DNA of 59,881 nt from Thermoanaerobaculia bacterium (GCA_041750915.1 JBGSYJ010000248.1:1-59881), one strand, 5' to 3'; counted from the stretch's first letter, positions 1-46,747 are shown. The notes: generated by a model from the sequence alone, not told the origin. Made by a program: numbers and translations.

Positions 1-98
1 CTGAGTTGTGAGTGGGACCGGGCCACTCAGAACTCACAACTCACAACTCACAACTCACAACTCACAACTCACAACTCACAACTCACAACTCACAACTC
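1..98. repeat. Heptamer-arm hairpin element, C-type (TGTGAGT/ACTCACA), left arm cut by window edge
   Basis: nt 1-13 ctgagttgtgagt, then an 11-nt GC core gggaccgggcc, then 10 tandem ACTCA(C/G)A heptamers (25-94) plus a partial unit. The two arms are reverse complements. The array ends 8 nt before the mpg ATG. Confidence 0.9.
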
Positions 99-106
99 TT
101 TTCATC

Positions 107-721
107 ATGACTGCCCTTCCCGCTACGTTCTACCAAGAGGACACGGTTCACGTGGCCAGGGCGCTGCTCGGCTGCACGCTGCACCGACGCATTGGCCGCA
201 CGACTCTTGCTGCACGGATTGTGGAGACCGAGGCGTATCTCGGTGCGAATGATCCTGCGAGCCATGCGCGGGGAGGCCTGCGGAGCGCGCGTAATGAATC
301 GATGTATCTCGAGGGCGGTCATGCGTACGTTTACTTCACGTACGGAATGCACTGGTGCGTGAATGTCGTGACCGGCGAAGCGGACATCGCCGAAGCAGTC
401 CTTCTCCGGGCGGCGCAAGCCGTCGGGGGAATCGAGCAGATCAAGGCGAACCGTCCCAAGGCGAAACGGGAGTTCGATCTGATGAACGGCCCGGGAAAGC
501 TCTGCATGGCAATGCAGATCGACCGCGAGCTCGACGGTGAACCGCTCAGAGGGCGGAAGCTCTGGATCACCGGCCGGGAGGCGGACATTGCCGAGGATGA
601 CATCGCCGTCTCCCCAAGGATCGGCATCGACGGCGCCGGGGAGGCTGCATCCTGGCCGCTGCGCTTTTTTCTCGCAGGAAATCGCTACGTCTCGGTGCGA
701 AGAGTAGTCAGTAGTCAGTAG
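107..721 (+). CDS. mpg: DNA-3-methyladenine (alkyladenine) glycosylase, AAG/MPG family
   Basis: ORF 8..721 trimmed to ATG 107, because the upstream HNSQLTT x3 is just translation of the heptamer array. Family-typical blocks: FYQEDTVHVARALLGCTL, ETEAYLG..DPASHA, YVYFTYGMHWCVNVV. The last 6 codons and the TAG lie inside a B-type heptamer array. Confidence 0.85.
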   Translation: MTALPATFYQEDTVHVARALLGCTLHRRIGRTTLAARIVETEAYLGANDPASHARGGLRSARNESMYLEGGHAYVYFTYGMHWCVNVVTGEADIAEAVLLRAAQAVGGIEQIKANRPKAKREFDLMNGPGKLCMAMQIDRELDGEPLRGRKLWITGREADIAEDDIAVSPRIGIDGAGEAASWPLRFFLAGNRYVSVRRVVSSQ

Positions 722-959
722 TAGCAAGATGATCCTTCACTGTCCTGTGGCTGTGAAGAAATCGAAGCCATTGTGTCATCCCGAGCGTCGAGCGAGGGAT
801 CTGGGCGGGGGTCTTCTAGACAGGAGCCGCCACCCAGATCCCTCGCTCGACGCTCGGAATGTCACTTCGCGATTCATTCACAATCTCTCAGGATGACAAA
901 GGGCGCTCAGTCCGGGCGGGCGGGCTACTGACTCCTGACTCCTGACTCCTGACTACTCC
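702..959. repeat. Heptamer-arm hairpin element, B-type (GTAGTCA/GGAGTCA), with nested MITE insertions in its core
   Basis: Left arm gagtagtcagtagtcagtagtag (702-724). Right arm ctactgactcctgactcctgactcctgactactcc (925-959), preceded by gggcgggcggg. The core holds a split F1-like remnant (726-739 and 887-898) that is itself interrupted by an F2 copy (773-865). Confidence 0.85.
773..865. repeat. MITE-like palindrome, family F2 (short copy)
   Basis: gtgtcatcccgagcgtcgagcgagggatctgggcgg ... ccacccagatccctcgctcgacgctcggaatgtcac. Same termini and stem as the copies at 25249 and 59753. Confidence 0.85.
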
Positions 960-971
960 TTCTGATCCCTC

Positions 972-1283
972 TTACTTGAAAAACGACGTCAGCTTCCCGA
1001 CGATCCCGCGGTTCTTCTCTTCCAGAATCTGCTCCATCTCGCCCTCGTCGAACCACGTGCCGTTGCACGACACACAACGATCGAGCTCGATCCCCGAGAA
1101 GTCGATGTGGTGCAGGTCCATCCCGCACTTGGGACACTTCATGTAGTGAAGCTGTTTGAGCTGCTCCCGTTCCGCGGCTTCCATCTTGCCGAGCCGTTCC
1201 TCTTCCCACTTCTTCTTCCGCTCGAGCTCCTGCCGGGCGAAGTACTCGTCCTCGGCTTTACTTGGCTTGTCAACGTCGCTCAT
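972..1283 (-). CDS. Zinc-ribbon (TFIIB-type zf) protein with N-terminal charged coiled-coil
   Basis: ATG 1283 preceded by AAGGAGAAA. CPKCG..(16)..CVSCNGTWFD zinc-ribbon pattern. 103 aa. Confidence 0.75.
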   Translation of the reverse strand: MSDVDKPSKAEDEYFARQELERKKKWEEERLGKMEAAEREQLKQLHYMKCPKCGMDLHHIDFSGIELDRCVSCNGTWFDEGEMEQILEEKNRGIVGKLTSFFK

Positions 1284-1319
1284 GGCTTTCTCCTTTGCGG
1301 GGACATTGTACCGATCAGA

Positions 1320-1473
1320 AGTAGACAGTACACAGTAGACAGAAGACAGTAGGGGGCCACCACCCGCCCTCGCTTTGGTCCCAAGGCCGGAGATTGGCTA
1401 GCGAGACTCCGACGCTCAGGATGAGTTCGGTGCGGGCGGGCTACTGTCTTCTGTCTACTGTGTACTGTCTACT
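1320..1473. repeat. Heptamer-arm hairpin element, A-type (GTAGACA/GTACACA/GAAGACA)
   Basis: The 33-nt arms agtagacagtacacagtagacagaagacagtag (1320-1352) and ctactgtcttctgtctactgtgtactgtctact (1441-1473) are perfect reverse complements. An inner clamp (cacccgccc ... gcgggcggg) surrounds an 88-nt core. The right arm ends 4 nt from the btuB-like stop codon. Confidence 0.95.
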
Positions 1474-1477
1474 TTTC

Positions 1478-3334
1478 TCACTTCAAGGTATATCGCAGTC
1501 CCGCCACCAATCGCCTTCCCTGTGAGGGATAGCCGAAGACTTCCTGATACTCCTCATCCGTCACATTCTCGAGCTTCAGGTAGGGAACGAATGCGGCCAC
1601 CGCGTACTGGACTGTGGCGTCGGCGGTTGTGTAGGCATCGTTGGTGACGCGTCCGAAGGGAGCGAGATCGGTCACGTCCGCGCGAGTGCCGTTATGCACG
1701 GCCACCACAGTCGTCCGCCATGCTCGGTACGCGTATCCGATGGAGAGCGATCCCGAGTGTTCCGGCCGCCGGAGGAGCGCCTCTCCCGTATCCTGCTGCT
1801 CTGTATCGAGCCAGGTGTAACTCGCCGCAGCAGACCAGCCGTTCCGCAGCACGCCGGATCCACTGAGCTCGACTCCCTGCGTTACGGCGGCGCCGATGTT
1901 CTGGAAGACGTTCGTCAGATTGTCGTAGACGATCAGATTATCGAAGTCGTTGTGAAAGAGAGTGGCGGAGAACACACCGTTCGCGCCGATGAAGCGATCG
2001 AATCCAACCTCGGCGCTGCGGCTCCGCTCAGGCTCGAGAGCCGCGTTTCCGAAGAACGGATAGTAAAGCTCGCCGACGGAGGGGGCTCGAAACGCGTGCC
2101 CATAACCGATCCTCACTTTGCTTGAGCCGAAGATCAGCGCCGATGCAATGCGGGGCGAGAGCTCGCCACCGAACGTGTCGTAATGATCGTGGCGCAATCC
2201 AGCGGTCACCTCGAATTGCGCGGCACCGAGTGCCCTCGAGAAGCGGTTCTCGACGAAGAACGACCGGCTCGAACGCTGCTCATCGACGAGATTCGGACCG
2301 TACACGGAGACATCCGTCACCTCCGCCTCTTCCAGCTCGAATCCTCCGATGAGCGTGCCGGCTACAGTCGGCGTCTGCACGGATAGGTTCATCCGGCCGG
2401 TCTTCGATTCTGTAGTCGAGTCGGTGAAGAAGAAAGGATCCTCAGGATCGGAGAAGTCGTCGGTACGACGGCTCTCCGAAAGACTGAGTCGCCACGTCAG
2501 GTTTGCGGTCGTGAATCGCACGGGGACCGCCCACTGCAGCTCATTCCCATCCAGCCTGCGCTGCGGGCTCGGAACGAACGCCGTCCCATCGGCATTCACG
2601 TTGCGCGGAATCCCGAGGTCGTATTGCGTGTATCGCCCCTGAACGCCGATCGAAAAACGGTCCGATGGCGCGAACGCCGTGCCGAGAAGAACAGACTCCT
2701 GCTCGAAGTCGTCGTTCGGTGCGAAGCCGTCGTCGCGGCGGCTCTCGAAGGACGCATTCGTGCTGACGCTTCCGGAAGTGAACGCGCCAGAGACGGAACC
2801 GTTGAGGAGCCCGTTCCCGCCACTTTCGAGCTCGACGTTCAGGAGCCGGCCGCCAGTGGTCAGTACGTTCACAACGCCGGTGACAGCGTCGGAACCGTAG
2901 AGTGCAGAGAATGGTCCGCGAACCACTTCGATCCGCTCGACGCCGGCCGTCGAGAACCGCCCCCAGTCGTAACCGGAAAAGTAGGGGTTGTTGATCTCGA
3001 TCCCGTTCCAGAGAACGAGAGTATGCGTCGAATTGCCTCCCCTCGTGAGCAGCGAAGTGACTTTCCCCTGCGAGCCGGTTCGCGAAACAATGACTCCGGG
3101 AACTTCGCGCAGAGCTTCGGCGATGTCGCGTGATTCACGCCGCTCGATCTGCTCGCGCGTGATCACAGTGACGGAAGCGGGCGTTGTTTCGACGGTTTCA
3201 GGAACGGACGCGGCGGTGACTACCACCTGATCAGAAAAAGAATCCGGTGGCTCCGGCGTCGCGAGGGGAACTGCCGACTGCGGAAAAACGGGGACAGCAA
3301 AGCTCAGGATGAGTACGACTGCAAACGACTTCAT
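1478..3334 (-). CDS. btuB: TonB-dependent outer-membrane receptor, BtuB-like (corrinoid uptake inferred)
   Basis: ORF trimmed to ATG 3334, which gives the signal peptide MKSFAVVLILSFAVPVFPQ. Plug-domain block VVVTAASVPE..ASVTVITREQIERRESRDIAEALREVPGV..SLLTRGGNSTHTLVLWNG. C-terminal beta-barrel ending ..GLRYTLK. A cobalamin riboswitch lies directly upstream. Confidence 0.85.
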   Translation of the reverse strand: MKSFAVVLILSFAVPVFPQSAVPLATPEPPDSFSDQVVVTAASVPETVETTPASVTVITREQIERRESRDIAEALREVPGVIVSRTGSQGKVTSLLTRGGNSTHTLVLWNGIEINNPYFSGYDWGRFSTAGVERIEVVRGPFSALYGSDAVTGVVNVLTTGGRLLNVELESGGNGLLNGSVSGAFTSGSVSTNASFESRRDDGFAPNDDFEQESVLLGTAFAPSDRFSIGVQGRYTQYDLGIPRNVNADGTAFVPSPQRRLDGNELQWAVPVRFTTANLTWRLSLSESRRTDDFSDPEDPFFFTDSTTESKTGRMNLSVQTPTVAGTLIGGFELEEAEVTDVSVYGPNLVDEQRSSRSFFVENRFSRALGAAQFEVTAGLRHDHYDTFGGELSPRIASALIFGSSKVRIGYGHAFRAPSVGELYYPFFGNAALEPERSRSAEVGFDRFIGANGVFSATLFHNDFDNLIVYDNLTNVFQNIGAAVTQGVELSGSGVLRNGWSAAASYTWLDTEQQDTGEALLRRPEHSGSLSIGYAYRAWRTTVVAVHNGTRADVTDLAPFGRVTNDAYTTADATVQYAVAAFVPYLKLENVTDEEYQEVFGYPSQGRRLVAGLRYTLK

Positions 3335-3424
3335 GACGACTCCTCGCTTCCCTCCGAAGCGGATCGATGCGTGAGAAGTCGTCGAGACGCTCCTCACGCC
3401 CCGGAGGAACTGCAATGGCTGTTT

Positions 3425-3615
3425 CGAAATGGTCGGTCTCCTGGCTTCCGAGTCATCCTCGTCACGCACCCTTCCCGCTTGTCGCAGTGGGGGTCGGACA
3501 CGACCTCGCGTGAGTCGTCGTCGGTTACAGTGGCGGGGGCCGCGCCGGTATCACACCGGCTTCCCTGGAGCTACGGCAACTCGCCGCGCTCCGCACCATC
3601 TCGAATCGGTTGTGA
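3425..3615 (-). promoter_or_regulatory. Cobalamin (B12) riboswitch in the btuB-like leader
   Basis: The minus strand reads GGTGC..AGGGAAGCCGGTGTGATACCGGCGCGGCCCCCGCCACTGTAACC. The AGGGAA is at 3561-3566 and the CCGCCACTG at 3528-3536. The B12 box GAAGCCAGGAGACCGACC has GCCAGGAGAC at 3436-3445. Downstream, CCTCCG can pair with the CGGAGG/GAGGAG SD region in front of ATG 3334. Confidence 0.85.
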
Positions 3616-3628
3616 AAGAACTGGCCGA

Positions 3629-3656
3629 ATTGTATTCCTAATGTTTGGGAAGTCAA
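3629..3656 (-). promoter_or_regulatory. Sigma70-type promoter candidate for the riboswitch-btuB transcript
   Basis: Minus strand: TTGACT (3656-3651), a 16-nt spacer, then TACAAT (3634-3629). It is positioned just 5' of the riboswitch. Confidence 0.55.
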
Positions 3657-3672
3657 CGACGAGTGAAGGGCG

Positions 3673-3932
3673 AGTAGACAGTACACAGGAGACAGTACAC
3701 AGGAGACAGTACACAGGAGACAGTACACAGGAGACAGTAGACAGTACACAGTAGACAGTAGACAGTACACAGAAGACAGTAGCCCGCCCTGCCCCTTCGA
3801 TCAGGACCGGGTGTCATCCTCCGCCATGTCCAGGATGAACCGCTTCGAGTTGACGGCGCGACAGCAGAGATCAGGCGGATCAGGGCGGCGGGCTACTGTC
3901 TTCTGTGTACTGTCTACTGTGTACTGTCTACT
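3673..3932. repeat. Heptamer-arm hairpin element, A-type, strongly asymmetric arms
   Basis: The left arm (3673-3782) is about 110 nt, roughly 16 heptamers including 4x GGAGACAGTACACA. Then cccgccc ... ggcggcggg. The right arm (3893-3932) is 40 nt. The core contains gtgtcatcctc, resembling a MITE end. Confidence 0.9.
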
Positions 3933-3986
3933 CACCCTTCTCTCTTCGTTGACTTCGCCACACCCCGGCGTTAACCTCGAAACCAG

Positions 3987-5099
3987 ATGGTTCTGTTCAA
4001 TTACGCGACAAAAGAGATCACGGCAAAGGTCGTCTACTACGGGCCGGGACTCTGCGGCAAGACGACAAACCTCCACTTCATCTACGATTCGCTCCCCTCG
4101 TCGAACCGCAGCAAGATGCTCTCGCTCGCGACGCAAACGGATCGAACGCTTTTCTTCGACTTTCTTCCGATCGATCTCGGGAAGATCCGCGGCATGCGCA
4201 CCCGCCTGCAGCTCTACACGGTTCCCGGACAGGTCTACTACAACTCGACGCGTCAGCTCGTGCTCAAGGGTGCCGACGGGGTCGTCTTCGTTGCGGACAG
4301 TCAGGATGCCGCAGTCGACGCGAATCTCGAGAGCCTTCAGAACCTGGCGGACAACCTCAAGCGCCAGGGCATCCGGATCACAGAGGTGCCACTCGTGATC
4401 CAGTACAACAAGCGCGACCTGCCGAACGCCATGCCGGTCGCCGAACTCGAAGAGAAACTCAACAAACTCGGCGTCCGGTCATTCGAGTCGACCGCGACCA
4501 CCGGCATGGGCGTTGAAGCGACGCTCAACGGCATCGCGCAGATCGTCCTCGCGCACCTCGCGAAAAAGTACGGCCTCGAAGGACCGGAAGATCTCGAGAA
4601 CGAGATCCAGGTACTGCATCCCATCGACGACAGGCCACAGCCGGAGGCCGAGAGTGTCTGGGAAGACGAGCCTTCGTCCGTAGCCGTCGACGAGGAACAA
4701 GGCTCCACCCCCGCTGAGATTCGCAGCGAAACCTCGCCAGCCGAGAGCAAACCGACCGAGCAGCCATGGCCCGAAGCGTCGGAGCTCGTCCCTCCGCCAG
4801 TTGTGACTCCGAATCACGCCGCTTTCGACGAGCTCATCAGCGGATTTGAACATCCGGCCGACACTGACCGCGAATCGCCGACTGTCGTTCCTCTTGGATC
4901 GCTCGAAATCGAGACGACCGGTCAGGAGCGGGAGTTCGAGCTCGACCAGCCGTGGGAGAACCCCGTCACAGTTGCGCCGCCCCCACACGCGGAACTCGTC
5001 AAGGAGATCACTCTCCCCCTCAACCTCTCCCGTGAGGAGCTCGAGGGCCAGCGCAAGTTGAAAGTCCGGATCACGCTCGACGTGAACATCCTCGACTGA
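3987..5099 (+). CDS. mglA: MglA-family Ras-like GTPase with about 175-aa acidic/Pro-rich C-terminal extension
   Basis: Residues 1-195 align along their length with my memory of Myxococcus MglA: VYYGPGLCGKTTNL, TDRTLFFDFLP, LYTVPGQV, GVVFVADSQ, IQYNKRDLP. The extension (EGPEDLENE...PPVVTPNH...RITLDVNILD) has no match I recognise. Confidence 0.85.
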   Translation: MVLFNYATKEITAKVVYYGPGLCGKTTNLHFIYDSLPSSNRSKMLSLATQTDRTLFFDFLPIDLGKIRGMRTRLQLYTVPGQVYYNSTRQLVLKGADGVVFVADSQDAAVDANLESLQNLADNLKRQGIRITEVPLVIQYNKRDLPNAMPVAELEEKLNKLGVRSFESTATTGMGVEATLNGIAQIVLAHLAKKYGLEGPEDLENEIQVLHPIDDRPQPEAESVWEDEPSSVAVDEEQGSTPAEIRSETSPAESKPTEQPWPEASELVPPPVVTPNHAAFDELISGFEHPADTDRESPTVVPLGSLEIETTGQEREFELDQPWENPVTVAPPPHAELVKEITLPLNLSREELEGQRKLKVRITLDVNILD

Positions 5100-5181
5100 A
5101 ATGCGGCGGATCGGAATCCGCCGCTACTTGCGCCGCCCTCAGAAATTTAACGATCGCGCCATACTGTTTCGGTCGACACCC

Positions 5182-5271
5182 GGAGGAGTGGTCGAGTGGT
5201 TTAAGGCAGCGGTCTTGAAAACCGCCGTACCGGTAACGGTACCGTGGGTTCGAATCCCACCTCCTCCGCCA
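5182..5271 (+). tRNA. tRNA-Ser (anticodon UGA), CCA encoded
   Basis: GGAGGAG acceptor pairs with CTCCTCC. Anticodon arm GCGGT-CTTGAAA-ACCGC. Long variable arm CGTACCGGTAACGGTACC. T-arm GGGTTCGAATCCC. Confidence 0.93.
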
Positions 5272-5291
5272 GTGTCGCCTTCGGCGAAATT

Positions 5292-5372
5292 AAGAATTGA
5301 GAATTCAGAATTCAGAAAGCCCGCCCATCCCCTCTTCTGCATTCTGAATTCTGAATTCTGAATTCTCAATTC
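5292..5372. repeat. Heptamer-arm hairpin element, D-type (GAATTCA/GAATTCT) between two tRNA-Ser genes
   Basis: Left arm aagaattgagaattcagaattcagaa, core agcccgcccatcccctcttctgc, right arm attctgaattctgaattctgaattctcaattc. The right arm has one extra heptamer. Five GAATTC sites in total. Confidence 0.9.
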
Positions 5373-5460
5373 CCCTGTAGTATGCTGCCCGAACACCGGC
5401 AAGTGCGGCCGGGGGAATTGTCTTCCCCCTACCACGCTTACCAGTCCTGCACACGCACCC

Positions 5461-5552
5461 GGAGAGATGGGAGAGTGGCTTAATCCAGCGGTTTGCTAAA
5501 CCGCCGTACTGGGAAACTGGTACCGAGGGTTCGAATCCCTCTCTCTCCGCCA
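5461..5552 (+). tRNA. tRNA-Ser (anticodon GCU), CCA encoded
   Basis: GGAGAGA acceptor pairs with TCTCTCC. Anticodon arm GCGGT-TTGCTAA-ACCGC. Long variable arm. T-arm GGGTTCGAATCCC. Confidence 0.93.
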
Positions 5553-5564
5553 CTTTGTACCCCA

Positions 5565-7931
5565 TCAGAACTTCGCCGCCACCGCTACCCGTAGCGACCG
5601 CGGTTCCACCGGATGGGTATGGATGTCCTCGATGCCCCCGACAGGTTCCCCCGGCAGACGCGACGCGTAGAAATAGTCGATGTCACTTGCGTCATCGTCG
5701 AACAGGTTGAATACATCGACCTCCAGACGGTAGCGGGGGGTGAGCGAATAGCCGGCCCGCAGACTGACAAGCCCTGAATCCTCAGAGCGGACAGAGTTGT
5801 CTTCGATCAGCGGACGAGGGCCGAGATAGCGATAGCGGATCGAACCTGAGTACCTGTCTCCCTGCATGAAAGAAAGCCCGACGGTCGCAACGCCTTCGAT
5901 TGCTCCCGGAATCCTCTGGCCGGACGGATCATCGTCGTTGAAACGGGCGCGCGCCCAGGCGGCGTCGACCTCCAGCATCAACCAGCGCCGGATGCTGTAA
6001 TGGCTCGAGAGCTCGATACCCCTGCGCCTGCTCGGGCGGCTCGCTTCCGTCGTGCCGGCGTCTCCTATGAAAAGCAGTTCAGAGTCGATATCCAGGCTCC
6101 ATAGACCGCCGGAGATGTGAAAACGGGGAGTAGGTGTAGAGCGGAATCCGAGCTCGGCGCCTCTCGTGCGCACGAGCGCATCGACGCGCTCGGCCGGTTC
6201 GCCGGTGTTGGGATCGAACGTCTGCGTCGAGCCTCGCCCGTCGTTGCTGTGAAAGCCCAAGCCCCCATTGATGTACAGCTCCGTATTGCGCCACGGTCCG
6301 AGGATGAGACCTGCTTTGGGGCTGACGAGGGAGTCGTCGCTCTTCCCGGAGTTAGCCTCGATGTCGGATGTGACATCGAAACGGTACGCATCTGCACGGA
6401 CTCCGAGAACCGTCCGAACGAGAGGAGACCAGTGCGTCGTGTTCTGAAAGAAAAGTGCCGCGCACGTCTGATCGACTGCATCCTCGCGCACGGTAGTGAG
6501 ACGCTCCCGGCGTTCTGTCCGATAGAGACCAACTCTGCCGATGTCGTCGTGGCGAAGTTGAACTCCACCTACATTCTCGACGGGCCTTCCGTTCCAGCTG
6601 GACAGCCAGCGGTGCGATCCACTCAATCCCGTAACGAGCCGGTCATCGAGTTGCTCGAACTGATCTCCATTCTCGGGATCGTCGAGAAAATAGGTGAAGT
6701 TCGAAAAGAGATTCATGTCGTAATCGATGACGTACGCATTCCACTGGGTCAGCCGGCTCTCATGGTTCCTCTGCCAGTCGGCCGAAAGGGAGTACCGGTG
6801 TGTGTCTCCGCCGTCGGAATCGTCGACCAGACCGAATCGCGAGATCCGTCCATCTGCGACTGCGCGGCGCGGAATCTGATCGGTCGAGCTCCACTTCGCG
6901 TCGTACGCCATGACGGTGACGCTGAATCCTCCCAACTGATCTCCGTCGCTGTAGCGCATCACGGCATTGATCTTTTCATACCCATCGGGCCGGACCCATG
7001 GGCCGTCGTTCTGCGCGAGCTCGACCGCTGCCAGTAGAAAACCGCTTCCCACTTTCGGCGAAGCGGCGGCCAGTACCCTGCCGTAGTCGAACCGTCCGCC
7101 CTGGATCATGACGAAGGGCTGATCCAGAAAGTTCAGATAGTTCACGTTGACGGCGCCCGCAGTGGCGAAGTCGCCTTCGTCGGCGAAATAAGGACCCTTC
7201 TTGTACTGAACCCCGCTGATCAGCTCCGGAATCAGAAAGTTGCTGTCGGCGTAACCCTGTCCATGACCGTGCGTGGGCATGTTCACCGGAAGACCGGCGA
7301 CATTGATTGCGAGATCGGTTCCGTGATCGAGATTGAATCCGCGGAGGTAGTACTGGTTCGCTTTGCCCTCGCCGCTGTGCTGGCTGATGATCAGTCCGGG
7401 AACTGTCTCGAGAACTTCACCGGGACGCTGATACGGTTGTCGTGCGATCTTCGCGGCGGACACGACGCCAACCGTACCGGAATCGGCGAAGCCGAGGAGA
7501 TCATCGACGGGCTCATCGAGCTCGGCGAGATTTCTGAACGTCTGCCGTCCGGTCACGACGACTTCCGCGCTCGACGACAGAAACATCGTCGTGTTCAGCT
7601 CGACCACTCCGTCCCCGATCGTGACTGATTTCATGAGCGAAGTTGCGAAGTTGATAAGACGAAATGCGATGTCGTAACGGCCCGGTCCCAGAGGTAACCA
7701 GTACTTACCAGAGGAGTCCGTGACGGACACCTCTGAGGCCCCACCGCTGACCGGCGTGACCTCCACCGTGACACCAGGAAGCGGGGCGCCTGTCGAGTCG
7801 AGGACCACGCCGCCAATGCTGCCGTGAGCCATGGCGATTCCCGCAGGGGCCGAGATCAATGCGGCGAGCAGTATTGCTCGTACGAGCCGTGGCATCCCAC
7901 GGCGAAACACGAGATGCGTTCTGTGAATCAC
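5565..7931 (-). CDS. TonB-dependent receptor with N-terminal carboxypeptidase-regulatory-like domain
   Basis: GTG 7931 lies 4 nt after GGAGG. Signal peptide ..LLAALISAPAGIAMAHG. CarbopepD_reg-like block GGVVLDSTGAPLPGVTVEV..TDSSGKYWL..GRYDI. Plug and barrel follow, with terminal ..AVAAKF. Confidence 0.85.
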   Translation of the reverse strand: MIHRTHLVFRRGMPRLVRAILLAALISAPAGIAMAHGSIGGVVLDSTGAPLPGVTVEVTPVSGGASEVSVTDSSGKYWLPLGPGRYDIAFRLINFATSLMKSVTIGDGVVELNTTMFLSSSAEVVVTGRQTFRNLAELDEPVDDLLGFADSGTVGVVSAAKIARQPYQRPGEVLETVPGLIISQHSGEGKANQYYLRGFNLDHGTDLAINVAGLPVNMPTHGHGQGYADSNFLIPELISGVQYKKGPYFADEGDFATAGAVNVNYLNFLDQPFVMIQGGRFDYGRVLAAASPKVGSGFLLAAVELAQNDGPWVRPDGYEKINAVMRYSDGDQLGGFSVTVMAYDAKWSSTDQIPRRAVADGRISRFGLVDDSDGGDTHRYSLSADWQRNHESRLTQWNAYVIDYDMNLFSNFTYFLDDPENGDQFEQLDDRLVTGLSGSHRWLSSWNGRPVENVGGVQLRHDDIGRVGLYRTERRERLTTVREDAVDQTCAALFFQNTTHWSPLVRTVLGVRADAYRFDVTSDIEANSGKSDDSLVSPKAGLILGPWRNTELYINGGLGFHSNDGRGSTQTFDPNTGEPAERVDALVRTRGAELGFRSTPTPRFHISGGLWSLDIDSELLFIGDAGTTEASRPSRRRGIELSSHYSIRRWLMLEVDAAWARARFNDDDPSGQRIPGAIEGVATVGLSFMQGDRYSGSIRYRYLGPRPLIEDNSVRSEDSGLVSLRAGYSLTPRYRLEVDVFNLFDDDASDIDYFYASRLPGEPVGGIEDIHTHPVEPRSLRVAVAAKF

Positions 7932-8056
7932 AGAGCCTCCAGAACCACTTCATGAAGTCTCACTGCACACGCAACCGGACCGAAGGCAACTGAAGATCGA
8001 GCGAGCGTCGGTCATGTCAGCGCCGTCAGTGGAGGAGGCTGGAGACTCTTCGGATG

Positions 8057-8479
8057 TCAGGTGAGGCGATTCTGGTCGTGGGGCGGGCTGCGGTCCCTCA
8101 CACGTGAACAGTCGAGAACTTCCGGTCGGGAGTGACGATGCTGCGCGTTCTGCAGAAGAACGCGGTCGGGAATGCTCAGCGGGTCAACATAACCGACGCC
8201 GTCGCTGATGTATGCGTCGAAATGCGCAGTGCTGTTGGCGCCGTGTTCAGGCGTGTGGGAGTTGTCTTCGCCGTTGTGACCGTCTTCCGCTCCATGCCCG
8301 GATGGCTCGTGCGGATGTGCGTGCGGGTGTTCATGTGAGGTCTCTCCATGCGAATGGAGCCTGATCCCGCCCCCGGCGTGGTCATGATCGACGTCGTGGA
8401 AAAACAGATGGAGGGCGGGTGTGAGCACCGTCCCCGTCAGATAGACGGCGAGCAGCAGCGGTCGGGCGGAGCCGGTCAT
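8057..8479 (-). CDS. Histidine-rich small protein with N-terminal hydrophobic helix (metal binding inferred)
   Basis: The segment HLFFHDVDHDHAGGGIRLHSHGETSHEHPHAHPHEPSGHGAEDGHNGEDNSHTPEHG is very His-rich (many His within about 60 aa). The ORF sits between the FAD/Rieske gene and the TonB receptor on the same strand. No clear SD. Confidence 0.55.
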   Translation of the reverse strand: MTGSARPLLLAVYLTGTVLTPALHLFFHDVDHDHAGGGIRLHSHGETSHEHPHAHPHEPSGHGAEDGHNGEDNSHTPEHGANSTAHFDAYISDGVGYVDPLSIPDRVLLQNAQHRHSRPEVLDCSRVRDRSPPHDQNRLT

Positions 8480-8517
8480 AAGTACTCGGAATTACGCAGT
8501 GAATCGAAGAACGGATT

Positions 8518-10050
8518 CTATAACTTATCGAGGTCGATTCGCTCGAGCGGTTTGACTGCCGGGCCGTTCAGAACTTCGCCGCCGGCCGAGAACCGTGAGC
8601 CGTGACAGGGGCAGTCCCAGCTCCGCTCCGCGTTGTTCCAGTGGACATCGCAGCCCATATGCGTACATACCGGGGACAATGCCGTTAGTTCCCCAGAGTC
8701 GCTGCGAGAGACAGCCATCTTCCGGCCGTCGATTTTCAGCAGTTTTCCCTCACCGGGGAGAACGTCGTCCAGCGACTTCCCCTCCACGTCCACCGACGTG
8801 AGACGGTCCCCAACGAGATGCTTCGGGAAGTCAACATTCTCAGTGACGAAGTCGACGGCGGACGCGATCGGCTTGATACGGGTGGGGTCGAAGAGTTCCT
8901 TCCATGGATTGTCGATCGCGCGGATCAAATCCGAAACGAGCATTCCCGAGAACGTGCCGAACGTCATTCCCTGACCTGCAAACCCCGTTGCAACATAGAC
9001 GTTTTTCGAGAATGAGTTCCGTCCGATGTATGGAAGCCCATCGAGAGGCTCGATGATCTGGCCTGACCACCGGTGGCTGATCTCATGAACGATGAAATGC
9101 GAGCGGATGTAGTCTTCCAGCGCCTGATAGCAGCTTTCGGTATCCGTACCATCTCCCGTCTTGTGATCCTTCCCACCGACGATGATGTAGAGACCCTCGT
9201 CCGTGCGCTGCCACCTGGTGTAGTGGTACGGATCGGCGGTGTCCCAGAAGAGCCCTTCCAGATCAGAATCGGCGCTTACCTCCGCAGCCATCGCGTACGA
9301 ACGGTACGCGGGAATCTTTGTCTGAAGAAAGAAGCGATTGTTCACCGGCACGTTCGCGGCGACGAATACGGCCTTCGCCGTGATCACGAAATCTTCTGTC
9401 TCGACACGACACGGTTCACCATCATGCACGGCGAGCACATTCGTGTTCTCGAAGATGAACGACCCGTTTCCTGGAATCGATTCAGCAATCGGGAGCAGAT
9501 AGCGGCGAGGATGAAACTCCGACTGTTTTTCGAATCGAACACCACCAGTTGCGAACGGCAACGGAACATCCGTGATGTACTCGGCGACGACACCGGCACG
9601 CCGCGCGGCCTCTGCTTCTTCACGAAGTTTATCCAGGTCGTCACCGGTCTCGCTGTAGAGAAACCCCGGCAGCTGCCGGAGGCCACAGGAGATTCCGAGC
9701 TCCAGTGCGATCTGTTCGATCTGATGAATCGCAGCGCGGCTTGCCTCGGCGGCCAGTCGCGCACCGTCGCGCCCGAAGTCGCGCTCGAGCGAGTGATACC
9801 GCGCATCGATCGCCTCGGTGAGATGTGCCGTTGTGTGCCCCGTCTCGCCCTCCGCAATTCTGTGCGCATCGACAACGGCGACCGACAGGCCGGAACGCTT
9901 GAGCAGATAAGCGGCAGTCAGACCTGAGATGCCTCCTCCCACGATCGCGACATCGATCGATAAGTCGCGGTCCAGTGCTGGGAAGCTGCTCGTGGGAGTG
10001 GTGGCAATCCAGAGAGACTCGTTCATGGAACGCGGGGGAGCAAGAAGCAT
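8518..10050 (-). CDS. FAD-dependent oxidoreductase fused to a C-terminal Rieske [2Fe-2S] domain
   Basis: Dinucleotide-binding motif DVAIVGGGISGLTAAYLL. Rieske ligand boxes CTHMGC and CPCHGSRF. The start is ambiguous (ATG 10050 or ATG 10026) and neither has an SD. An A-type array begins 9 nt upstream of 10050. Confidence 0.8.
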   Translation of the reverse strand: MLLAPPRSMNESLWIATTPTSSFPALDRDLSIDVAIVGGGISGLTAAYLLKRSGLSVAVVDAHRIAEGETGHTTAHLTEAIDARYHSLERDFGRDGARLAAEASRAAIHQIEQIALELGISCGLRQLPGFLYSETGDDLDKLREEAEAARRAGVVAEYITDVPLPFATGGVRFEKQSEFHPRRYLLPIAESIPGNGSFIFENTNVLAVHDGEPCRVETEDFVITAKAVFVAANVPVNNRFFLQTKIPAYRSYAMAAEVSADSDLEGLFWDTADPYHYTRWQRTDEGLYIIVGGKDHKTGDGTDTESCYQALEDYIRSHFIVHEISHRWSGQIIEPLDGLPYIGRNSFSKNVYVATGFAGQGMTFGTFSGMLVSDLIRAIDNPWKELFDPTRIKPIASAVDFVTENVDFPKHLVGDRLTSVDVEGKSLDDVLPGEGKLLKIDGRKMAVSRSDSGELTALSPVCTHMGCDVHWNNAERSWDCPCHGSRFSAGGEVLNGPAVKPLERIDLDKL

Positions 10051-10059
10051 GCATGGGGG

Positions 10060-10203
<144 letters not shown>

Positions 10204-10342
10204 TCCTTCCGCCTCCCGACTCCTTCCCCAACCGGGCACACATTGTGCTCGGGTTCAATGGGCACGACAGGCGGATCACCGCACCGGAGGCTCATCCGAT
10301 CGGGTGCAGATCGGCCCACGCAATCACACAAGGAGGCACACC

Positions 10343-10669
10343 GTGGGGAATACCAGCAATAGAGGTTTTGCATCGATGGACGCGGATCGCCAGCGCGAGA
10401 TCGCGAGCAAGGGTGGCCGAGCTGCGCACGCCAAAGGAACCGCACATCAGTTTACTTCCGAGGAAGCGCGGGAAGCCGGCCGCAAGGGAGGCCAGGCTGT
10501 GAGCCGCAATCGCGAGCACATGGCGGCCATCGGTCGTGAGGGTGGCCAGAGCCGCGGAAAGTCGCGTGAGCGCAGCAACGGCGACGAGCAGGGTCCGGCC
10601 GTTGGCGACCAGTCGCGAAGCCGATTCGCCAGCACCACGGAAGCCAGCGAGCTTCGCGACCGAGAATAG
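10343..10669 (+). CDS. KGG-repeat general stress protein
   Basis: GTG 10343 lies 6 nt after AAGGAGG. The N-terminus ..NRGFASMDADRQREIASKGG, plus EAGRKGG and IGREGG, match the stress-induced KGG repeat pattern. The ORF-track start at 10190 is read-through of the repeat arm. Confidence 0.75.
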   Translation: MGNTSNRGFASMDADRQREIASKGGRAAHAKGTAHQFTSEEAREAGRKGGQAVSRNREHMAAIGREGGQSRGKSRERSNGDEQGPAVGDQSRSRFASTTEASELRDRE

Positions 10670-10810
10670 TCGCGGGCAGTCAGACCCCTGGCTCGAGGCT
10701 GTGAAGGATCTCCTGTCCACCCCGCGTGGCACAGAGAGATCCTTCGCTGCCCTCAGTCGAAGGGCTCTCAAACAGAGCGCTGCGCGTGGCGCAAGCCCGC
10801 GTCACGGAGC

Positions 10811-11488
10811 TCAATCGAGCGGGTCCGGCCGCGCTTCGACACCCAGGGCCTTCCCCCATTCCCGCGCCGCAAACGCAAGTGGCGGCAGGCCGACTTTGGC
10901 TCTGCGAAGATCGATTGCCTCACCCGGCTCGATTCTGTATGGGCGATGGACTCCGTCGCTGTCGACACCGAATTGCGTACCGTACCGCTGCGGTTTTTTC
11001 TGACTCACCAGCACGCGGTCGGTCAGATACGCCAGTTTCGCGGGGTTCGCCTCCCCATTTGCGACCGCCACCTCCATCAGCTGGAGGGCTCGCTGCTGGA
11101 GCTCCGGCCGCGCGTCTGCATGCTGAGCGATCAGCCACGCTGCGTCGGCCCCATCCTGACCGACCATCGAAATCGTCGGCCAGCCGTGCTCTTCGATCAC
11201 CTTCTCGAGAAAGTCGGCACTCTCGATGTCGATCTCACGGACCCTTCTGACCGCAGGCATCGCCTCCTCCGCGTACGGCTGTCCGTCCGGCGGTGCCGGC
11301 GCTCTGTTGATCGCCGCGATCATGTCCTTGCGGGCGCGCTGATCCCGCCGGAAGAGACCCCGCAACTCGGCCCTCAGCTCGGGATGCGTGATGATCGGGG
11401 CGGCGATCTCCTGATCTGTCGAACCGCTCGCACACCCGACGAATGTAAGGATTCCCGCCAGCAGCAGGCTCTCGAGTTTTCCTGACAC
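10811..11488 (-). CDS. Lipoprotein of unknown function
   Basis: GTG 11488 lies 5 nt after AGGAGG. It gives MSGKLESLLLAGILTFVGC, a signal peptide with an FVGC lipobox. The helical body has no family I can name. Confidence 0.65.
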   Translation of the reverse strand: MSGKLESLLLAGILTFVGCASGSTDQEIAAPIITHPELRAELRGLFRRDQRARKDMIAAINRAPAPPDGQPYAEEAMPAVRRVREIDIESADFLEKVIEEHGWPTISMVGQDGADAAWLIAQHADARPELQQRALQLMEVAVANGEANPAKLAYLTDRVLVSQKKPQRYGTQFGVDSDGVHRPYRIEPGEAIDLRRAKVGLPPLAFAAREWGKALGVEARPDPLD

Positions 11489-12387: not shown

Positions 12388-12615
12388 CTCAACCCTCCGT
12401 TGCGTCAGGACTGACGGCGACAGGACGTCAGTGCCGGTCGAAAAAACGATGCACGCTCTGTCCGCGATTGCACGGATCACTGTCTGCCGGGCAACGCGAC
12501 CTCAACTCGTACAGCGCGTGCATATATCTCGCCAGCAGCGTCGAGCGATGGATGACCCGCTCGGTGGTTTTCACGCAGTCTCGCGCGTCAGGATGACACC
12601 TACCTCCAATCTCCG

Positions 12616-15791: not shown

Positions 15792-15848
15792 CGGGATGAA
15801 CGCTCCGTGATTTTCGGTGATGGGTTCAGTATAGAGCAGAGGTCGGAG

Positions 15849-32913: not shown

Positions 32914-32928
32914 GGGCAAGCGCGCCGC

Positions 32929-33016
32929 GTGTCATCCTGAGCGCAGCGAAGGATCCCCTTCCTCGAGGCGATACCGCAAGTCTTCAGGGGATCCTTCGCT
33001 TCGCTCAGGATGACAC
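32929..33016. repeat. MITE-like palindrome, family F1
   Basis: Full copy 16 nt after the glmS stop. Loop cttcctcgaggcgataccgcaagtcttcag. Confidence 0.95.
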
Positions 33017-33059
33017 TGGGGCCGGGGTGCCAAGTCTGGGTGATCAGAAACCCGTCTGC

Positions 33060-34190: not shown

Positions 34191-34255
34191 CCGCAGAAGC
34201 AAAGAATCTGAGCCGCGTCGAAATTCCGGGACGCGCCGTGCGAAGGATGAACCAG

Positions 34256-34428
34256 GTGTCATCCCGAGCAAGTGTGGGAGTGTGGGAGGGGCGAGGGACC
34301 TCACGCGATGGTACATAGTTGCCTCGAGGAGAGGTTCGTACTCCTCACTGTCCCGTGACGAACTGACTATGTACTATCGCCGGAGGTCCCTCGCCCCTCC
34401 CACCCGCACAACCAGGCTCGGGATGACA
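34256..34428. repeat. MITE-like palindrome, family F3 (full, about 172 bp)
   Basis: gTGTCATCCCGAGCaagtgtgggagtgtgggaggggcgagggacctc..ggtacatagt......ctatgtactatcgccggaggtccctcgcccctcccacccgcacaaccaggCTCGGGATGACA. Confidence 0.95.
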
Positions 34429-36719: not shown

Positions 36720-36827
36720 CGCGAGGACTCCGTGGGGGAGAGTGGAGCGGGTGGACAACCGCCGCCCGCGTACGAGTCGCAAAGCTTATCATGCCATTTG
36801 GGACGGTCATGTCACGGCGGCGAGCGG

Positions 36828-36915
36828 GTGTCATCCTGAGCGCAGCGAAGGATCCCCTTCCTCGAGACGATACCGCAAGTCTTCAGGGGATCCTTCGCTT
36901 CGCTCAGGATGACAC
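36828..36915. repeat. MITE-like palindrome, family F1
   Basis: Full copy, nearly identical to the one at 32929. Confidence 0.95.
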
Positions 36916-37026
36916 CGCGCTACGGGTGGTGGTTTCTTGCAATCACTTCGGCACGTCCCGTCCGAATACAGAAAGGCCGCGCCTTGCGGGCGCGGCCTTG
37001 TGTCCTACAGCTCGAAACGAAACCGG

Positions 37027-40302: not shown

Positions 40303-41592
<1,290 letters not shown>

Positions 41593-41598
41593 GTTAGT

Positions 41599-43214: not shown

Positions 43215-43281
43215 GCCGACAACGTGGCATCTCACGGTTGTGGCGAGCGATGAACGAGCTCGTCGGGCCAGAGCGCAACAC

Positions 43282-43369
43282 GTGTCATCCTGAGCGAAGC
43301 GAAGGATCCCCTGAAGACCGGCGTCAGTGCATCGAGGTAGGGGATCCTTCGCTTCGCTCAGGATGACAC
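43282..43369. repeat. MITE-like palindrome, family F1 (inverted loop orientation)
   Basis: Full copy with loop ctgaagaccggcgtcagtgcatcgaggtag. Confidence 0.95.
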
Positions 43370-43457
43370 GCTGCTCAATGTGCGGTTGCGTATGGATCAG
43401 CTGTACTGTTAAGATCCGCCGAGATCCTGATTTCCGAAAGTAGTAGCCATAGAACGA

Positions 43458-44789: not shown

Positions 44790-44802
44790 CCCTCGGGGCG
44801 CC

Positions 44803-46719
44803 ATGAAAACCATCACTGTTCGGGTGCCTGCAAGAGCAGATCTTGCAGGCGGAACCCTCGATCTCTGGCCGCTCTATCTGTTCCATCCCGGCTCGAGGAC
44901 TGTCAACGTCGCAATCTCGTTTCACGCGGAATGCGAGGTGCAGGCGATCGCACACGGCCGCATCGAAGTCGAGCTCGGAGACTCGGGCTACAAGGCGAGC
45001 TTCGAATCGATCGCCGAGATGCTTCGCGACGAGAACGTGGCGCTGATCGCCCGCGCGGTCGAACATTTCAAACTCTCCGGCATCCGGATACTCACACGCA
45101 CGGAAGTGCCGCGCGGATCAGGTCTCGGAGGTTCATCGGCTCTGACGGTTGCTGTCGTCCGCGCTCTTTCCGAGTTCACGGATCTCCCGGTCGAAGGCGA
45201 CAGTCTGATCGCTCTGGTCCGCGACCTCGAGACACGGCTGCTTCATGTGCCCGCCGGAGTTCAGGATTACTACCCGCCGGTCTATGGCGGCCTTTCGTCG
45301 CTGCATCTCAATCCCGGCGCAATCGTTCGACAATCCATCCGGCTTCCGCTGGGTGATCTCGCGCAGCACTTCATTGTTCACTACAGCGAGATCTCCCACT
45401 TCTCGGGCACCAACAACTGGGAGATCTACAAGCGTCACATCGATGAAGATCCCGAAGTCCGTTCGGCTCTGAGCGAGATAGCCGCAATCTCCGCGGAGAT
45501 GGAACGCTCGCTCGAGGCGCACGACCTGGCAGCCGCAGGACGCGCTCTGGGCGAAGAATGGCGCGTTCGGAAGTCGCTGATCGAAGGCATCTCGACTCCC
45601 GAGATCGACCAGGCAATTACTGCAGCGACGAAAGCGGGCGCCTGGGCCGGCAAAGTGTGCGGCGCCGGAGGCGGGGGTTGCATCGTCTTTCTCGCGCCTC
45701 CGGAGAAGCGCGACAAAGTGCTCAGAGCGCTCCGCAAGGTTCCCGGCCGCACCCTTGACGCCATGCCGGTTCCGTATGGCCTCACTGTCGAACAGAAACC
45801 CGACAGCAAGTCGTTCGCCTTCGTCGACCGGCCCTCACGTCCCCCTCTGGAAGCTGTCGATCAACTCTACCTCTCCGCTGGAGGCGACGGCCCGTACCGG
45901 CCGTTCGTGATGATCGAGGGAGCGGTGACGTTCGACGACGCGAGGCGCGGCACACATCTCACGATCTCCAGATCGCTGATGGCTCCTGTGAGCACCGCCG
46001 ATGAACAGATCGACTGGAGCCGCGCCGTCGCGATCGAGCCGGATCACCTTCGTCTGACCGCGGTTCCCGAGCCAGATCGCATCTTCGCCATCCGCCCGAA
46101 TGACGAGAAACTCACGGCGATCACGACCGACGGCGATGAATCCTTCCGCCTCTATCTCGAGGAAACCGAGAAGCTGACCATCTTCCACAATCCGGAGCTT
46201 TCGCTTTACTCCGAACCCTCCGAATCCCGCGACGAGTTTCTTCGCCGCTGCCTGGAAGCCGGAAAGCGCGGTCTCGAGCCCGAGACCGACCGGCTCGAAA
46301 GCACCTTTCGCCGGCGCATCGACCAGATGAAGCAGAAGCAGGAGCGCGAACAGAGGGCCATCGATGATTCGTCCGAGCGTATGCAGCACAGCGCTACGGA
46401 AGTGAACATCGCCTGGGGACAGACTCTCTACAACATCACCAGCGGCAGGCGCGCCCATTCCGACGCCCCGAGCTCGCCTCGTGAAGGCGACTACTTCGAA
46501 GGAATCTCCGCACTCAAGAAATCGTGGGACCGTGAGCTCGAAGCCCTCCGGGACAGCATCAACGAGAAGGCTCGGCGGATCGAAGAGATCACGCTGACCC
46601 CATCGCGCCGGAACATCGAGATCCGGCGGTACGTGATCGTCTGGGCGGCGGGGTTCGAGTCGGGGCAGTCGCGCAGGACAGAGGGCGCGGGGCGAAGGGC
46701 GGCGAAGTCGGGGGAGTAG
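44803..46719 (+). CDS. GHMP-kinase domain protein fused to about 300-aa C-terminal region of unknown function
   Basis: Residues 1-330: RADLAGGTLD, PRGSGLGGSSALTVAVV (GHMP motif II), KVCGAGGGGC (motif III). Residues about 335-638 include a charged coiled segment (RRIDQMKQKQEREQRAID) and match nothing I recognise. The TAG stop lies in a heptamer array. Confidence 0.75.
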   Translation: MKTITVRVPARADLAGGTLDLWPLYLFHPGSRTVNVAISFHAECEVQAIAHGRIEVELGDSGYKASFESIAEMLRDENVALIARAVEHFKLSGIRILTRTEVPRGSGLGGSSALTVAVVRALSEFTDLPVEGDSLIALVRDLETRLLHVPAGVQDYYPPVYGGLSSLHLNPGAIVRQSIRLPLGDLAQHFIVHYSEISHFSGTNNWEIYKRHIDEDPEVRSALSEIAAISAEMERSLEAHDLAAAGRALGEEWRVRKSLIEGISTPEIDQAITAATKAGAWAGKVCGAGGGGCIVFLAPPEKRDKVLRALRKVPGRTLDAMPVPYGLTVEQKPDSKSFAFVDRPSRPPLEAVDQLYLSAGGDGPYRPFVMIEGAVTFDDARRGTHLTISRSLMAPVSTADEQIDWSRAVAIEPDHLRLTAVPEPDRIFAIRPNDEKLTAITTDGDESFRLYLEETEKLTIFHNPELSLYSEPSESRDEFLRRCLEAGKRGLEPETDRLESTFRRRIDQMKQKQEREQRAIDDSSERMQHSATEVNIAWGQTLYNITSGRRAHSDAPSSPREGDYFEGISALKKSWDRELEALRDSINEKARRIEEITLTPSRRNIEIRRYVIVWAAGFESGQSRRTEGAGRRAAKSGE

Positions 46720-46747
46720 TCAGTAGACAGGAGTCAGTAGTCAGTAG
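46714..46747. repeat. Single mixed B/A-type heptamer arm followed by CCCGCCC
   Basis: gagtagtcagtagacaggagtcagtagtcagtag, then cccgcccggcccg. No clear partner arm. An F1 MITE follows at 46776. Confidence 0.85.

Follow-up and report, generated by a model that had tools for sequence, protein, structure and literature searches.

Analysis of a 59,881-nt contig of a Thermoanaerobaculia bacterium (GCA_041750915.1 JBGSYJ010000248.1:1-59881; hereafter the window, meaning the whole stretch) revealed a family of intergenic palindromes built from tandem heptanucleotides, with nine members that we label E1 to E9. Their nature as a palindrome family was shown by a master arm common to distant loci, by length steps of 7 nt, and by gain, loss and remodeling between relatives. 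The interpretation that we favor, with a probability of about 0.45, is that they are dispersed, fast-evolving intergenic palindromes of heptanucleotide microsatellites which, where transcribed, would act as RNA hairpins at gene ends. They are best explained as the acidobacterial counterpart of the short tandemly repeated repetitive (STRR) hairpins of cyanobacteria together with the heptanucleotide long simple sequence repeats (LSSRs) of bacteria.

Heptanucleotide arrays and hairpin architecture

Arrays were located with Tandem Repeats Finder, arm pairing with an inverted-repeat finder, and periods of 4-12 nt were scanned separately. Period-7 arrays (Tandem Repeats Finder scores 40-170) were found at all nine loci named in the original prediction, which had been made from the sequence alone: 25-98 in E1, 703-722/928-954 in E2, 1320-1352/1441-1473 in E3, 3673-3782/3893-3932 in E4, 5288-5317/5335-5372 in E5, 10060-10105/10171-10203 in E6, 22004-22036/22136-22168 in E7 and 41425-41506/41526-41592 in E8, with the E9 array beginning at 46715. 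The period was specific, as the separate scan of the window yielded 16 arrays (644 nt) at period 7 and none at each of periods 4-6 and 8-12. The repeat is an LSSR in the sense of a 5-11 nt unit tandemly repeated to a greater length than chance allows. Four unit types occurred in the nine spacers, as had been described: A (GTAGACA), B (GTAGTCA), C (GAGTTGT) and D (GAATTCA). Together, the elements comprise approximately 1.4 kb, or 2.3% of the contig.

Eight loci consisted of two inverted arrays paired as a hairpin, with 33-49 nt of inverted pairing at 83-97% complementarity and 17-200 nt between the paired arms; the ninth (E9, at 46714), also put forward as a hairpin, is a single arm without a clear partner. 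Individual arms are direct heptamer arrays without self-complementarity, and pairing occurs between arms. The predicted RNA minimum free energies of the eight paired elements ranged from -33.8 (E5) to -141.6 kcal/mol (E2), with folding z-scores, computed against mononucleotide shuffles, of -8 to -15 on both strands, except for the truncated E1. The canonical type A arm, a 33-mer (AGTAGACAGTACACAGTAGACAGAAGACAGTAG), was found exactly at 1320 (+), 1441 (-), 10171 (-) and 22004 (+) and with one mismatch at 22136 (-), in agreement with the predicted identity or single-base difference of these arms; at up to 3 mismatches it had 12 matches in the window vs. none in 100 shuffles.

The inner clamp CCCGCCC/GGGCGGG, which had been presented as common to the whole family, was strongly enriched at arm junctions: 5/9 window copies of CCCGCCC lay at most 11 nt inside a left arm and 5/11 copies of GGGCGGG at most 4 nt from a right arm, against a background of 0.3% of 25-nt windows. 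It was missing from the type C elements E1 and E8, confined to the right side in E2, and represented by an unpaired CCCGCCC in E5 (left side only) and E9. GC-rich inner stems were present in E3, E4, E6 and E7. The variable core was likewise only partly as proposed (11-110 nt), since the E2 core measures approximately 200 nt with a nested repeat and E8 consists of two nested hairpins. Unique segments, which had been said to be lacking, make up the cores, whose sequences showed no kinship between window loci; the flanks were similarly unmatched, and it was the arms that matched. In types A and C, every frame of the 5' arm was interrupted by stop codons on either strand, against no stop codon in the 3' arm (window copies). 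The suggestion that selection acts on structure rather than on sequence was not borne out, as distant arms were identical in sequence; recent dispersal or template switching within the palindrome could equally yield complementary arms.

Turnover at orthologous sites

A close relative, whose Zn-ribbon protein was 88% and whose Tgt was 86% identical in amino acids to that of the window, was recovered as 10 syntenic contigs (8 for the Zn-ribbon region and 2 for the tgt region) from two sample sets. At the E1 site of this relative the flanking genes overlapped, leaving no spacer, and at the E4 site approximately 190 nt of unrelated sequence was found instead. The E2 site had kept its B-type arms around a different core, with a duplicated left arm, whereas the E3 site held a B-type right arm alone. 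The E5 element was present with a right arm shorter by two units. Comparison of repeat numbers between samples, one of the checks proposed originally, revealed that the E3-site arm was 14 nt (two units) shorter in one sample. In the 86% relative, the E8 site held one single C-type hairpin, and at the E9 site the arm was absent and the neighboring hairpin of a second repeat family (GTCATCC, described below) was retained.

The lolA-tgt spacer was compared over a wider range of Tgt relatives (window 41425-41598; L241 5277-5393; L243 9882-10000; L244 8871-8958). It contained a GTCATCC-type hairpin at 79% Tgt identity and neither family, just a weak short stem, at 77%. Filled and empty orthologous sites differed by replacement and not by clean insertion. 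Other Thermoanaerobaculia contigs carried heptamer hairpins of other units (L243 16828-17087, GCCGTTG/GCGAAAG; L239 863-941, GGATTGA), and a GGTTCTG hairpin with repeated CCCGCCC/GGGCGGG clamps was located at L110 8700-8910. The architecture therefore outlasts its units, arm lengths, cores and occupancy, which turn over quickly, given that orthologous spacers hold related, altered or no elements and that a 14-nt indel separates samples.

Distribution, polarity and position relative to genes

A scan of 185,579 species genomes (596 Gb) with the pattern GTAGACAGTA[C/G]ACAGTAGACAG, for which we estimated a chance expectation of approximately 0.14, returned at least 109 stretches with GTAG.CA arrays. 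Among the matches listed, Pyrinomonadaceae dominated; Nitrospirota, Gemmatimonadota, several Chloroflexota classes, Planctomycetota, Verrucomicrobiota, Fibrobacter, Bacteroidota, Actinomycetota, Patescibacteria, Cyanobacteria and others were represented as well. The same layout was found in a 9.5-Mb record titled 'chromosome: 1' (OY969418.1, L015). GTAGACA arrays occurred in seven viral contigs (L245-L251, IMG/VR), in at least two of which (L247 and L250) the TAG arm came first and the hairpin lay between genes. Metagenomes scanned with the exact 32-nt arm gave no match; the 16-nt arm-clamp junction, a pattern that proved too short, gave 120 matches, and those listed were isolated, mostly in apparent coding sequence and without arrays.

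Polarity was strict: among the matches listed, every GTAG.CA array with an inverted partner within 300 nt read 5'-(GTAG.CA)n ... (TG.CTAC)n-3' (71:0). In the same matches, arms had mostly 3-6 units and cores clustered at 47-60 nt. The flanks of the pairs were rich in purines 5' and in pyrimidines 3', like those of bidirectional terminators. As a universal rule, a stop-bearing arm in first position was rejected, since E5, L076 and units without stop codons (GCCGTTG, for example) do not obey it. Two kinds of core were observed in Pyrinomonadaceae. The first was a conserved, oriented sequence of approximately 57 nt (GCTCCGC...GAAGGTTTT), found in dozens of copies and in either orientation between GTAGACA/GTAGTCA arms (e.g., L053 6681-6818, L042 1124-1278 and L036 1042-1179, among L002-L109), for which no consensus structure emerged beyond six weak pairs (-4.4 kcal/mol). 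The second was a GC hairpin resembling a bidirectional terminator.

The 66 pairs from other genomes whose surroundings were classified by heuristic open reading frame (ORF) calls comprised 24 in convergent, 35 in co-directional and 7 in divergent spacers. As a circular genome has as many convergent as divergent spacers, the 24:7 ratio (one-sided binomial p = 0.0017, our own arithmetic) represents a real bias toward gene 3' ends. In co-directional spacers, elements lay at a median of -4 nt from the upstream stop vs. +22.5 nt from the downstream start (Wilcoxon p = 3e-5), and in 13/29 lone arrays the first TAG was the stop codon of the upstream gene.

A possible role at gene ends

If the palindromes are microsatellites that act at gene ends, unit number would change by replication slippage, and either recent common descent or template switching inside the palindrome could keep the arms complementary. 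Expansion of the arrays would stop at a functional boundary (a stop codon, a ribosome-binding/start region or a promoter, for example). A transcribed copy would give a very long RNA stem marking the end of the upstream gene from either direction, possibly via partial termination, a block to 3' exonucleases or an RNase III site. Ribosomes would be expected to halt at the foot of the stem in any frame, because the 5' arm of each strand offers TAG or TGA in every frame. Copies between promoters, such as E4, are probably untranscribed passengers. Precedents exist in the STRR hairpins, which have been proposed to stabilize transcripts (PMC2670836), and in repetitive extragenic palindromic (REP) sequences, which lie mostly downstream of genes (PMC3733652).

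A number of observations weigh against such a role. Termination, stabilization and cleavage are all inferred from sequence. The window copies alone show no bias toward gene 3' ends: one lies between convergent genes (E2), two between divergent genes (E4 and E6), four between tandem genes (E3, E7, E8 and E9) and one between tRNA-Ser genes (E5). E4 falls outside both neighboring transcription units and is probably untranscribed, as it lies 16 nt beyond the -35 boxes of both divergent promoters. The starts downstream of E6-E8 are preceded by no Shine-Dalgarno sequence and by no room for a promoter, and an efficient terminator there would therefore silence the next gene. A terminator scan found no U-tract after the stems. 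Stop polarity is reversed in E5, the GCCGTTG/GCGAAAG hairpin of L243 has no stop codon in its unit, and no target-site duplication was seen outside the arms. Finally, the 24:7 ratio and the other context statistics were obtained with heuristic ORF calls for copies selected by one heptamer, mostly from Pyrinomonadaceae, which belong to a class other than that of the window.

Alternative explanations

The elements could instead be selfish or neutral intergenic filler that spreads by slippage, recombination and gene conversion and persists where harmless, with the biases of position and polarity reflecting purifying selection only, since an arm with stop codons would do no damage beside a gene end. 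We regard this as unlikely. Several features fit it: space is filled up to the boundaries on both sides (E4 lies 16 nt from both -35 boxes, E7 and E8 4-8 nt from genes), every spacer type is occupied in the window, gain and loss between close relatives are rapid, the cores are unrelated, and a second repeat family occupies similar spacers. Filler would not be expected to show a convergent:divergent ratio of 24:7 despite the greater length of divergent spacers, nor a polarity of 71:0. The presence of arrays in compact viral genomes also speaks against filler, as does the lolA-tgt spacer, which keeps a hairpin repeat, albeit of differing family, in three lineages (the window, the 86% relative and the 79% relative), with a weak short stem at 77%.

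That the heptamer arms are the terminal inverted repeats of a miniature inverted-repeat transposable element (MITE), mobilized by a transposase encoded elsewhere, is improbable in our judgment. The conserved, oriented 57-nt core in dozens of Pyrinomonadaceae copies does fit such an element, and these copies look like a MITE-like subfamily; identical 33-nt arms kilobases apart, presence or absence at orthologous sites and contig breaks at a repeat point in the same direction. The window copies, in contrast, have cores unrelated to one another and thus lack the conserved internal sequence of a MITE. Arm length varies by whole units, lone arms exist, sites with and without an element differ by replacement, and neither a target-site duplication nor, among approximately 40 window ORFs, a transposase was found.

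A more ambitious proposal, also improbable, is a cross-phylum, polarity-locked gene-boundary module, a palindrome with a heptamer array bearing stop codons as the 5' arm of each strand, that would combine an all-frame translational stop with bidirectional transcript insulation on a 7-nt ruler and would have spread among phyla and phages as a unit or by convergent selection. If true, this module would be a general, undescribed gene-end solution in phyla without U-tract terminators.

Arrays of 7-bp sites bound at the DNA level by a nucleoid-associated protein or global regulator, the pairs of which would bridge or bend DNA, are a further candidate that we hold to be quite improbable. The same architecture has a precedent in Geobacter metallireducens, to whose consensus MTYCTGA the window units CTCCTGA and ATTCTGA conform (PMC2700814). 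Moreover, CCCGCCC adjoins arms even where it is unpaired (E5 and E9), E4 lies in probably untranscribed DNA between promoters, and arm sequence is conserved between loci. Binding by one protein is difficult to reconcile with at least four unrelated units in one genome and more in relatives, with a 7-bp spacing that sets successive sites on different helix faces, and with a freely varying unit number; the analysis yielded no candidate protein.

A regulatory or processed small RNA, or a CRISPR-like or riboswitch-like system, is very unlikely. The high stability of the hairpins and the position of some of them (E6, E7 and E8) in 5' leaders would fit, but the association with genes is inconsistent, the cores are not conserved, the 57-nt core of relatives lacks a consensus structure, and neither direct repeat-spacer arrays nor cas genes were found. 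The Rfam search suggested at the outset matched no family to the elements: at gathering score it returned only a cobalamin riboswitch and tRNAs in the window, and at E = 1 the elements gave only microRNA-like hairpin matches far below threshold. An artefact of short-read metagenome assembly, to which the contig ends inside E1 and another repeat and the possibly mis-assembled unit counts of long arms (E4) might point, is scarcely credible, since orthologous elements were identical across eight independently assembled contigs from two sample sets and the layout recurs in 'chromosome: 1' records and in many phyla.

Individual elements and their genomic surroundings

The window is ordinary chromosome. 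Its genes (Pfam) include those for a methylpurine glycosylase, a Zn-ribbon protein, a TonB-dependent receptor, GlmS, MnmA and two-component regulators, as well as a lolA-tgt-yajC-secD-secF cluster, and no transposase, integrase, reverse transcriptase or cas gene was among the approximately 40 ORFs. One window protein, looked up by its exact sequence, had no database entry. An ORF without a Pfam match (11584-12480, minus strand) contains tandem repeats of 15, 30 and 45 nt at 12053-12350 and looks like a repetitive low-complexity protein. Approximately 33 spacers are at least 40 nt long; nine of these hold a heptamer element and 13 the GTCATCC family.

E1 (type C, GAGTTGT/ACTCACA; 1-98) has a left arm (1-13) cut by the contig end, a loop at 14-24 and a right arm of 10.6 units (25-98). 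The methylpurine glycosylase gene (107-721) begins 8 nt downstream, and the left neighbor is beyond the contig end. Both contig ends fall inside repeats (1-98 and 59751-59881), for which reason the contig probably broke at repeats, leaving the left arm of E1 incomplete. E2 (type B, GTAGTCA/CTACTGA, CTCCTGA; 702-959) occupies a convergent spacer, with arms at 702-724 and 925-959, the left one including the stop codon of the glycosylase gene (719-721). Its core (725-924) contains a nested GTCATCC-type hairpin (773-865), fragments of others, and GGGCGGGCGGG at 914-924. The arms of E3 (type A; 1320-1473) are the exact canonical 33-mer (1320-1352) and its reverse complement (1441-1473), and its core (1353-1440) has CCCGCCC at 1363 and GGGCGGG at 1434. 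The TonB-dependent receptor gene has its stop 4 nt away, and the Zn-ribbon gene its start 36 nt away.

E4 (type A; 3673-3932) has a left arm at 3673-3782 (110 nt of alternating GGAGACA/GTACACA), a core at 3783-3892 and a right arm at 3893-3932. It lies between divergent promoters, 16 nt past each -35 box and 54-57 nt from the flanking features. On the minus strand, a sigma-70-like promoter of good quality (TTGACT-16-TACAAT, 3656-3629) serves the cobalamin riboswitch (3414-3615, 93 bits) upstream of the TonB-dependent receptor gene (1478-3469). On the other side, a TTGACT-17-TAACCT motif (TTGACT 3949-3954; 3949-3989, read by eye), kept in a relative (L110), precedes a GTPase-like gene. This gene may be leaderless or nearly so, because the motif ends 9 nt before its ATG (3987). 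E5 (type D, GAATTCA/TTCTGAA; 5288-5372), between two tRNA-Ser genes, has arms at 5288-5318 and 5335-5372 separated by a 17-nt loop with the unpaired CCCGCCC.

E6 (type A; 10060-10203) combines a left arm of 6.6 units (10060-10105) with the canonical 33-mer as right arm (10171-10203), around a core (10106-10170) with the clamp CCGCCCG/CGGGCGG; it occupies a divergent spacer, 9 nt from a start codon at 10050. E7 (type A; 22004-22168), flanked by two genes of the minus strand with a start codon at 8 nt and a stop codon at 4 nt, has the canonical 33-mer at 22004-22036, its one-mismatch counterpart at 22136-22168, and B-like heptamer remnants in the core at 22092-22113. E8 (type C; 41430-41592) takes up the lolA-tgt spacer, 5-6 nt from either gene, with outer arms at 41430-41462 and 41559-41592 and inner arms at 41474-41506 and 41526-41549; CCCGCCC is absent and CCGTCCC stands ahead of both right arms. 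E9 (46714-46754, plus strand) is a lone type A/B left arm, with an array at 46714-46747 and then CCCGCCC at 46748-46754. A GHMP-kinase gene has its stop codon in the first TAG of the array (46717-46719), a GTCATCC-type hairpin follows at 46776-46870, and CTCCTGAC at approximately 46875-46885 may be a remnant of a right arm. The expected distance of 4-10 nt between elements and ORFs was found at E7 and E8 and on one side of E3 and E6; E2, by overlapping a stop codon, and E4, at 54-57 nt, departed from it.

The genes after E6, E7 and E8 start 5-9 nt from the foot of a hairpin of about -90 kcal/mol (10050-10060, 21990-22004 and 41424-41430). Within heptamer arms, a promoter scan of 1-11000, which covered E6 and not E7 or E8, gave one weak consensus match, in E5; that TACTGT serves as a -10 box for the genes after E6-E8 is speculation. 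The mRNA upstream of an enolase-superfamily gene would read UUCCUCCCAUG, which resembles an anti-Shine-Dalgarno sequence. Terminator consensus matches at the elements were weak only (1424 and 3887), and canonical U-tract terminators were rare in the window. A convergent spacer free of either repeat family (19976-20145) contains a pair of inverted GC hairpins (GGCAGGGCC...GGCCCTGCC) that lack U-tracts and probably represent the usual form of terminator in this organism.

A second hairpin family

A second, denser family of hairpins, GTGTCATCC[CT]GAGCG...CGCTC[AG]GGATGACAC, was present in approximately 16 copies in 13 spacers of all types, with size classes of approximately 95, 125 and 170 nt. 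Copies were located at 771-867, 15846-15949, 15954-16121, 22750-22836, 24153-24325, 25247-25377, 32926-33029, 34255-34428, 36825-36928, 43279-43382, 46776-46870, 47995-48098, 54623-54726, 57114-57298 and 59751-59879. The E2 core harbors a nested copy and the E3 core half a copy, and a further copy adjoins E9. Copies were retained at orthologous sites of relatives. The repeat had no Rfam match, and a literature search for its sequence found nothing relevant.

Implications

The heptamer elements and the GTCATCC family together occupy most intergenic regions of the contig. Such repeats terminate contigs, extend spurious ORFs and provide genuine stop codons, with consequences for assembly, gene calling and strain typing (as 7-nt variable number tandem repeats) in Acidobacteriota and several other soil phyla. 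If the role at gene ends is true, they would help to define transcript ends where intrinsic terminators are poorly characterized. The 71:0 polarity and the period-7 rule are simple, testable regularities, and both bear on why heptanucleotides are the favored bacterial microsatellite, a question dating from 2007.

Comparison with known repeat systems

CRISPR was rejected, in agreement with the original prediction of a non-coding hairpin repeat family, as the 7-mers are contiguous and in inverted pairs, without direct repeat-spacer arrays or cas domains. The elements share with REPs and bacterial interspersed mosaic elements an intergenic location mostly downstream of genes, between convergent or co-directional genes, the motif GTAG, inverted pairs with variable linkers and, if the proposed role holds, effects on mRNA stability or termination (PMC3733652). 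However, REPs consist of imperfect palindromic units of 20-40 bp that carry an unpaired GTAG (or CGTC) at one end, whereas here GTAG is iterated and paired with CTAC, and types C and D do not have it. The arms not being self-complementary units of that size, the distinction from classical REPs made initially was confirmed. Identity with REPs and their associated tyrosine transposases (RAYTs) was rejected on the same grounds and for want of a transposase in the window, where no transposase domain, including the IS200/IS605-like type of RAYTs, was found in approximately 40 ORFs.

The view that these elements form an undescribed repeat class did not survive comparison with the literature. This kind of repeat is already known, since heptanucleotide LSSRs, STRR hairpins, TAACTGA repeats and paired sites in Geobacter have been described. 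Heptanucleotides are the most common LSSR in many bacteria (Mrazek 2007, via PMC4679880, PMC4692102). Polymerase slippage is the explanation offered, with 'no detailed literature' by 2015 (PMC4679880, PMC4692102). Like the window elements, the LSSRs of Mrazek et al. (2007), GGGAATC in Xanthomonas and the GATAGRA satellites of Chloroflexus are intergenic heptamers, recurring in the same spacer of related strains with wide variation in length and sequence, and a slippage origin has been proposed (PMC4679880, PMC4692102, PMC6749651). These reports concern direct arrays and deal neither with inverted hairpin pairing nor with a shared master arm.

TAACTGA repeats of Beggiatoaceae, Cyanobacteria and Bacteroidetes resemble the present family in having stops in all frames in one orientation, in overlapping the ends of upstream ORFs, in their closeness to start codons and in their patchy multi-phylum distribution; they differ in being nearly all direct (one inverted case), in 2-6 copies, and oriented toward start codons (PMC4679880). 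In G. metallireducens, class 3 sites form eight opposite-strand pairs, each of five tandem heptanucleotides with the consensus MTYCTGA, and were interpreted as sites for IHF/HU or a regulator, a proposal made without tests (PMC2700814). Opposite-strand intergenic pairs at variable distance with approximately five heptamers each correspond to the architecture of eight window loci, and CTCCTGA (E2) and ATTCTGA (E5) fit the consensus, whereas type A (CTACTGT) and type C do not. The density also differs, with eight pairs per Geobacter genome vs. nine loci in 60 kb, and neither a clamp nor a polarity rule was reported there.

Cyanobacterial STRR heptamers have been reported to form hairpins between genes, e.g., hupS-hupL, with a proposed role in transcript stability or coupling (PMC2670836). 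The window elements share with them tandem 7-nt units that are dispersed, intergenic and hairpin-capable, with several unit families per genome. By our own reading, CAGT is common to many STRR units and to the GTAG.CA units. The STRR units of Mazel's 1990 work reportedly include CCCCAGT, TTGGTCA and CAACAGT. STRRs differ in host phylum, being those of heterocystous cyanobacteria, whereas the nearest homologs of two window proteins were from Thermoanaerobaculia or Acidobacteriota, and in units, the window having GTAGACA, GTAGTCA, GAGTTGT and GAATTCA. We did not find the palindromic arm-core-arm layout, the C-rich/G-rich clamp or the single polarity described for STRRs, and our literature search returned no paper with the unit sequences and none describing such elements in Acidobacteriota. 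What appears to be new is the acidobacterial family itself, with its arm-clamp-core-clamp-arm layout, shared 33-mer arm and strict polarity, together with the multi-phylum spread of GTAG.CA palindromes.

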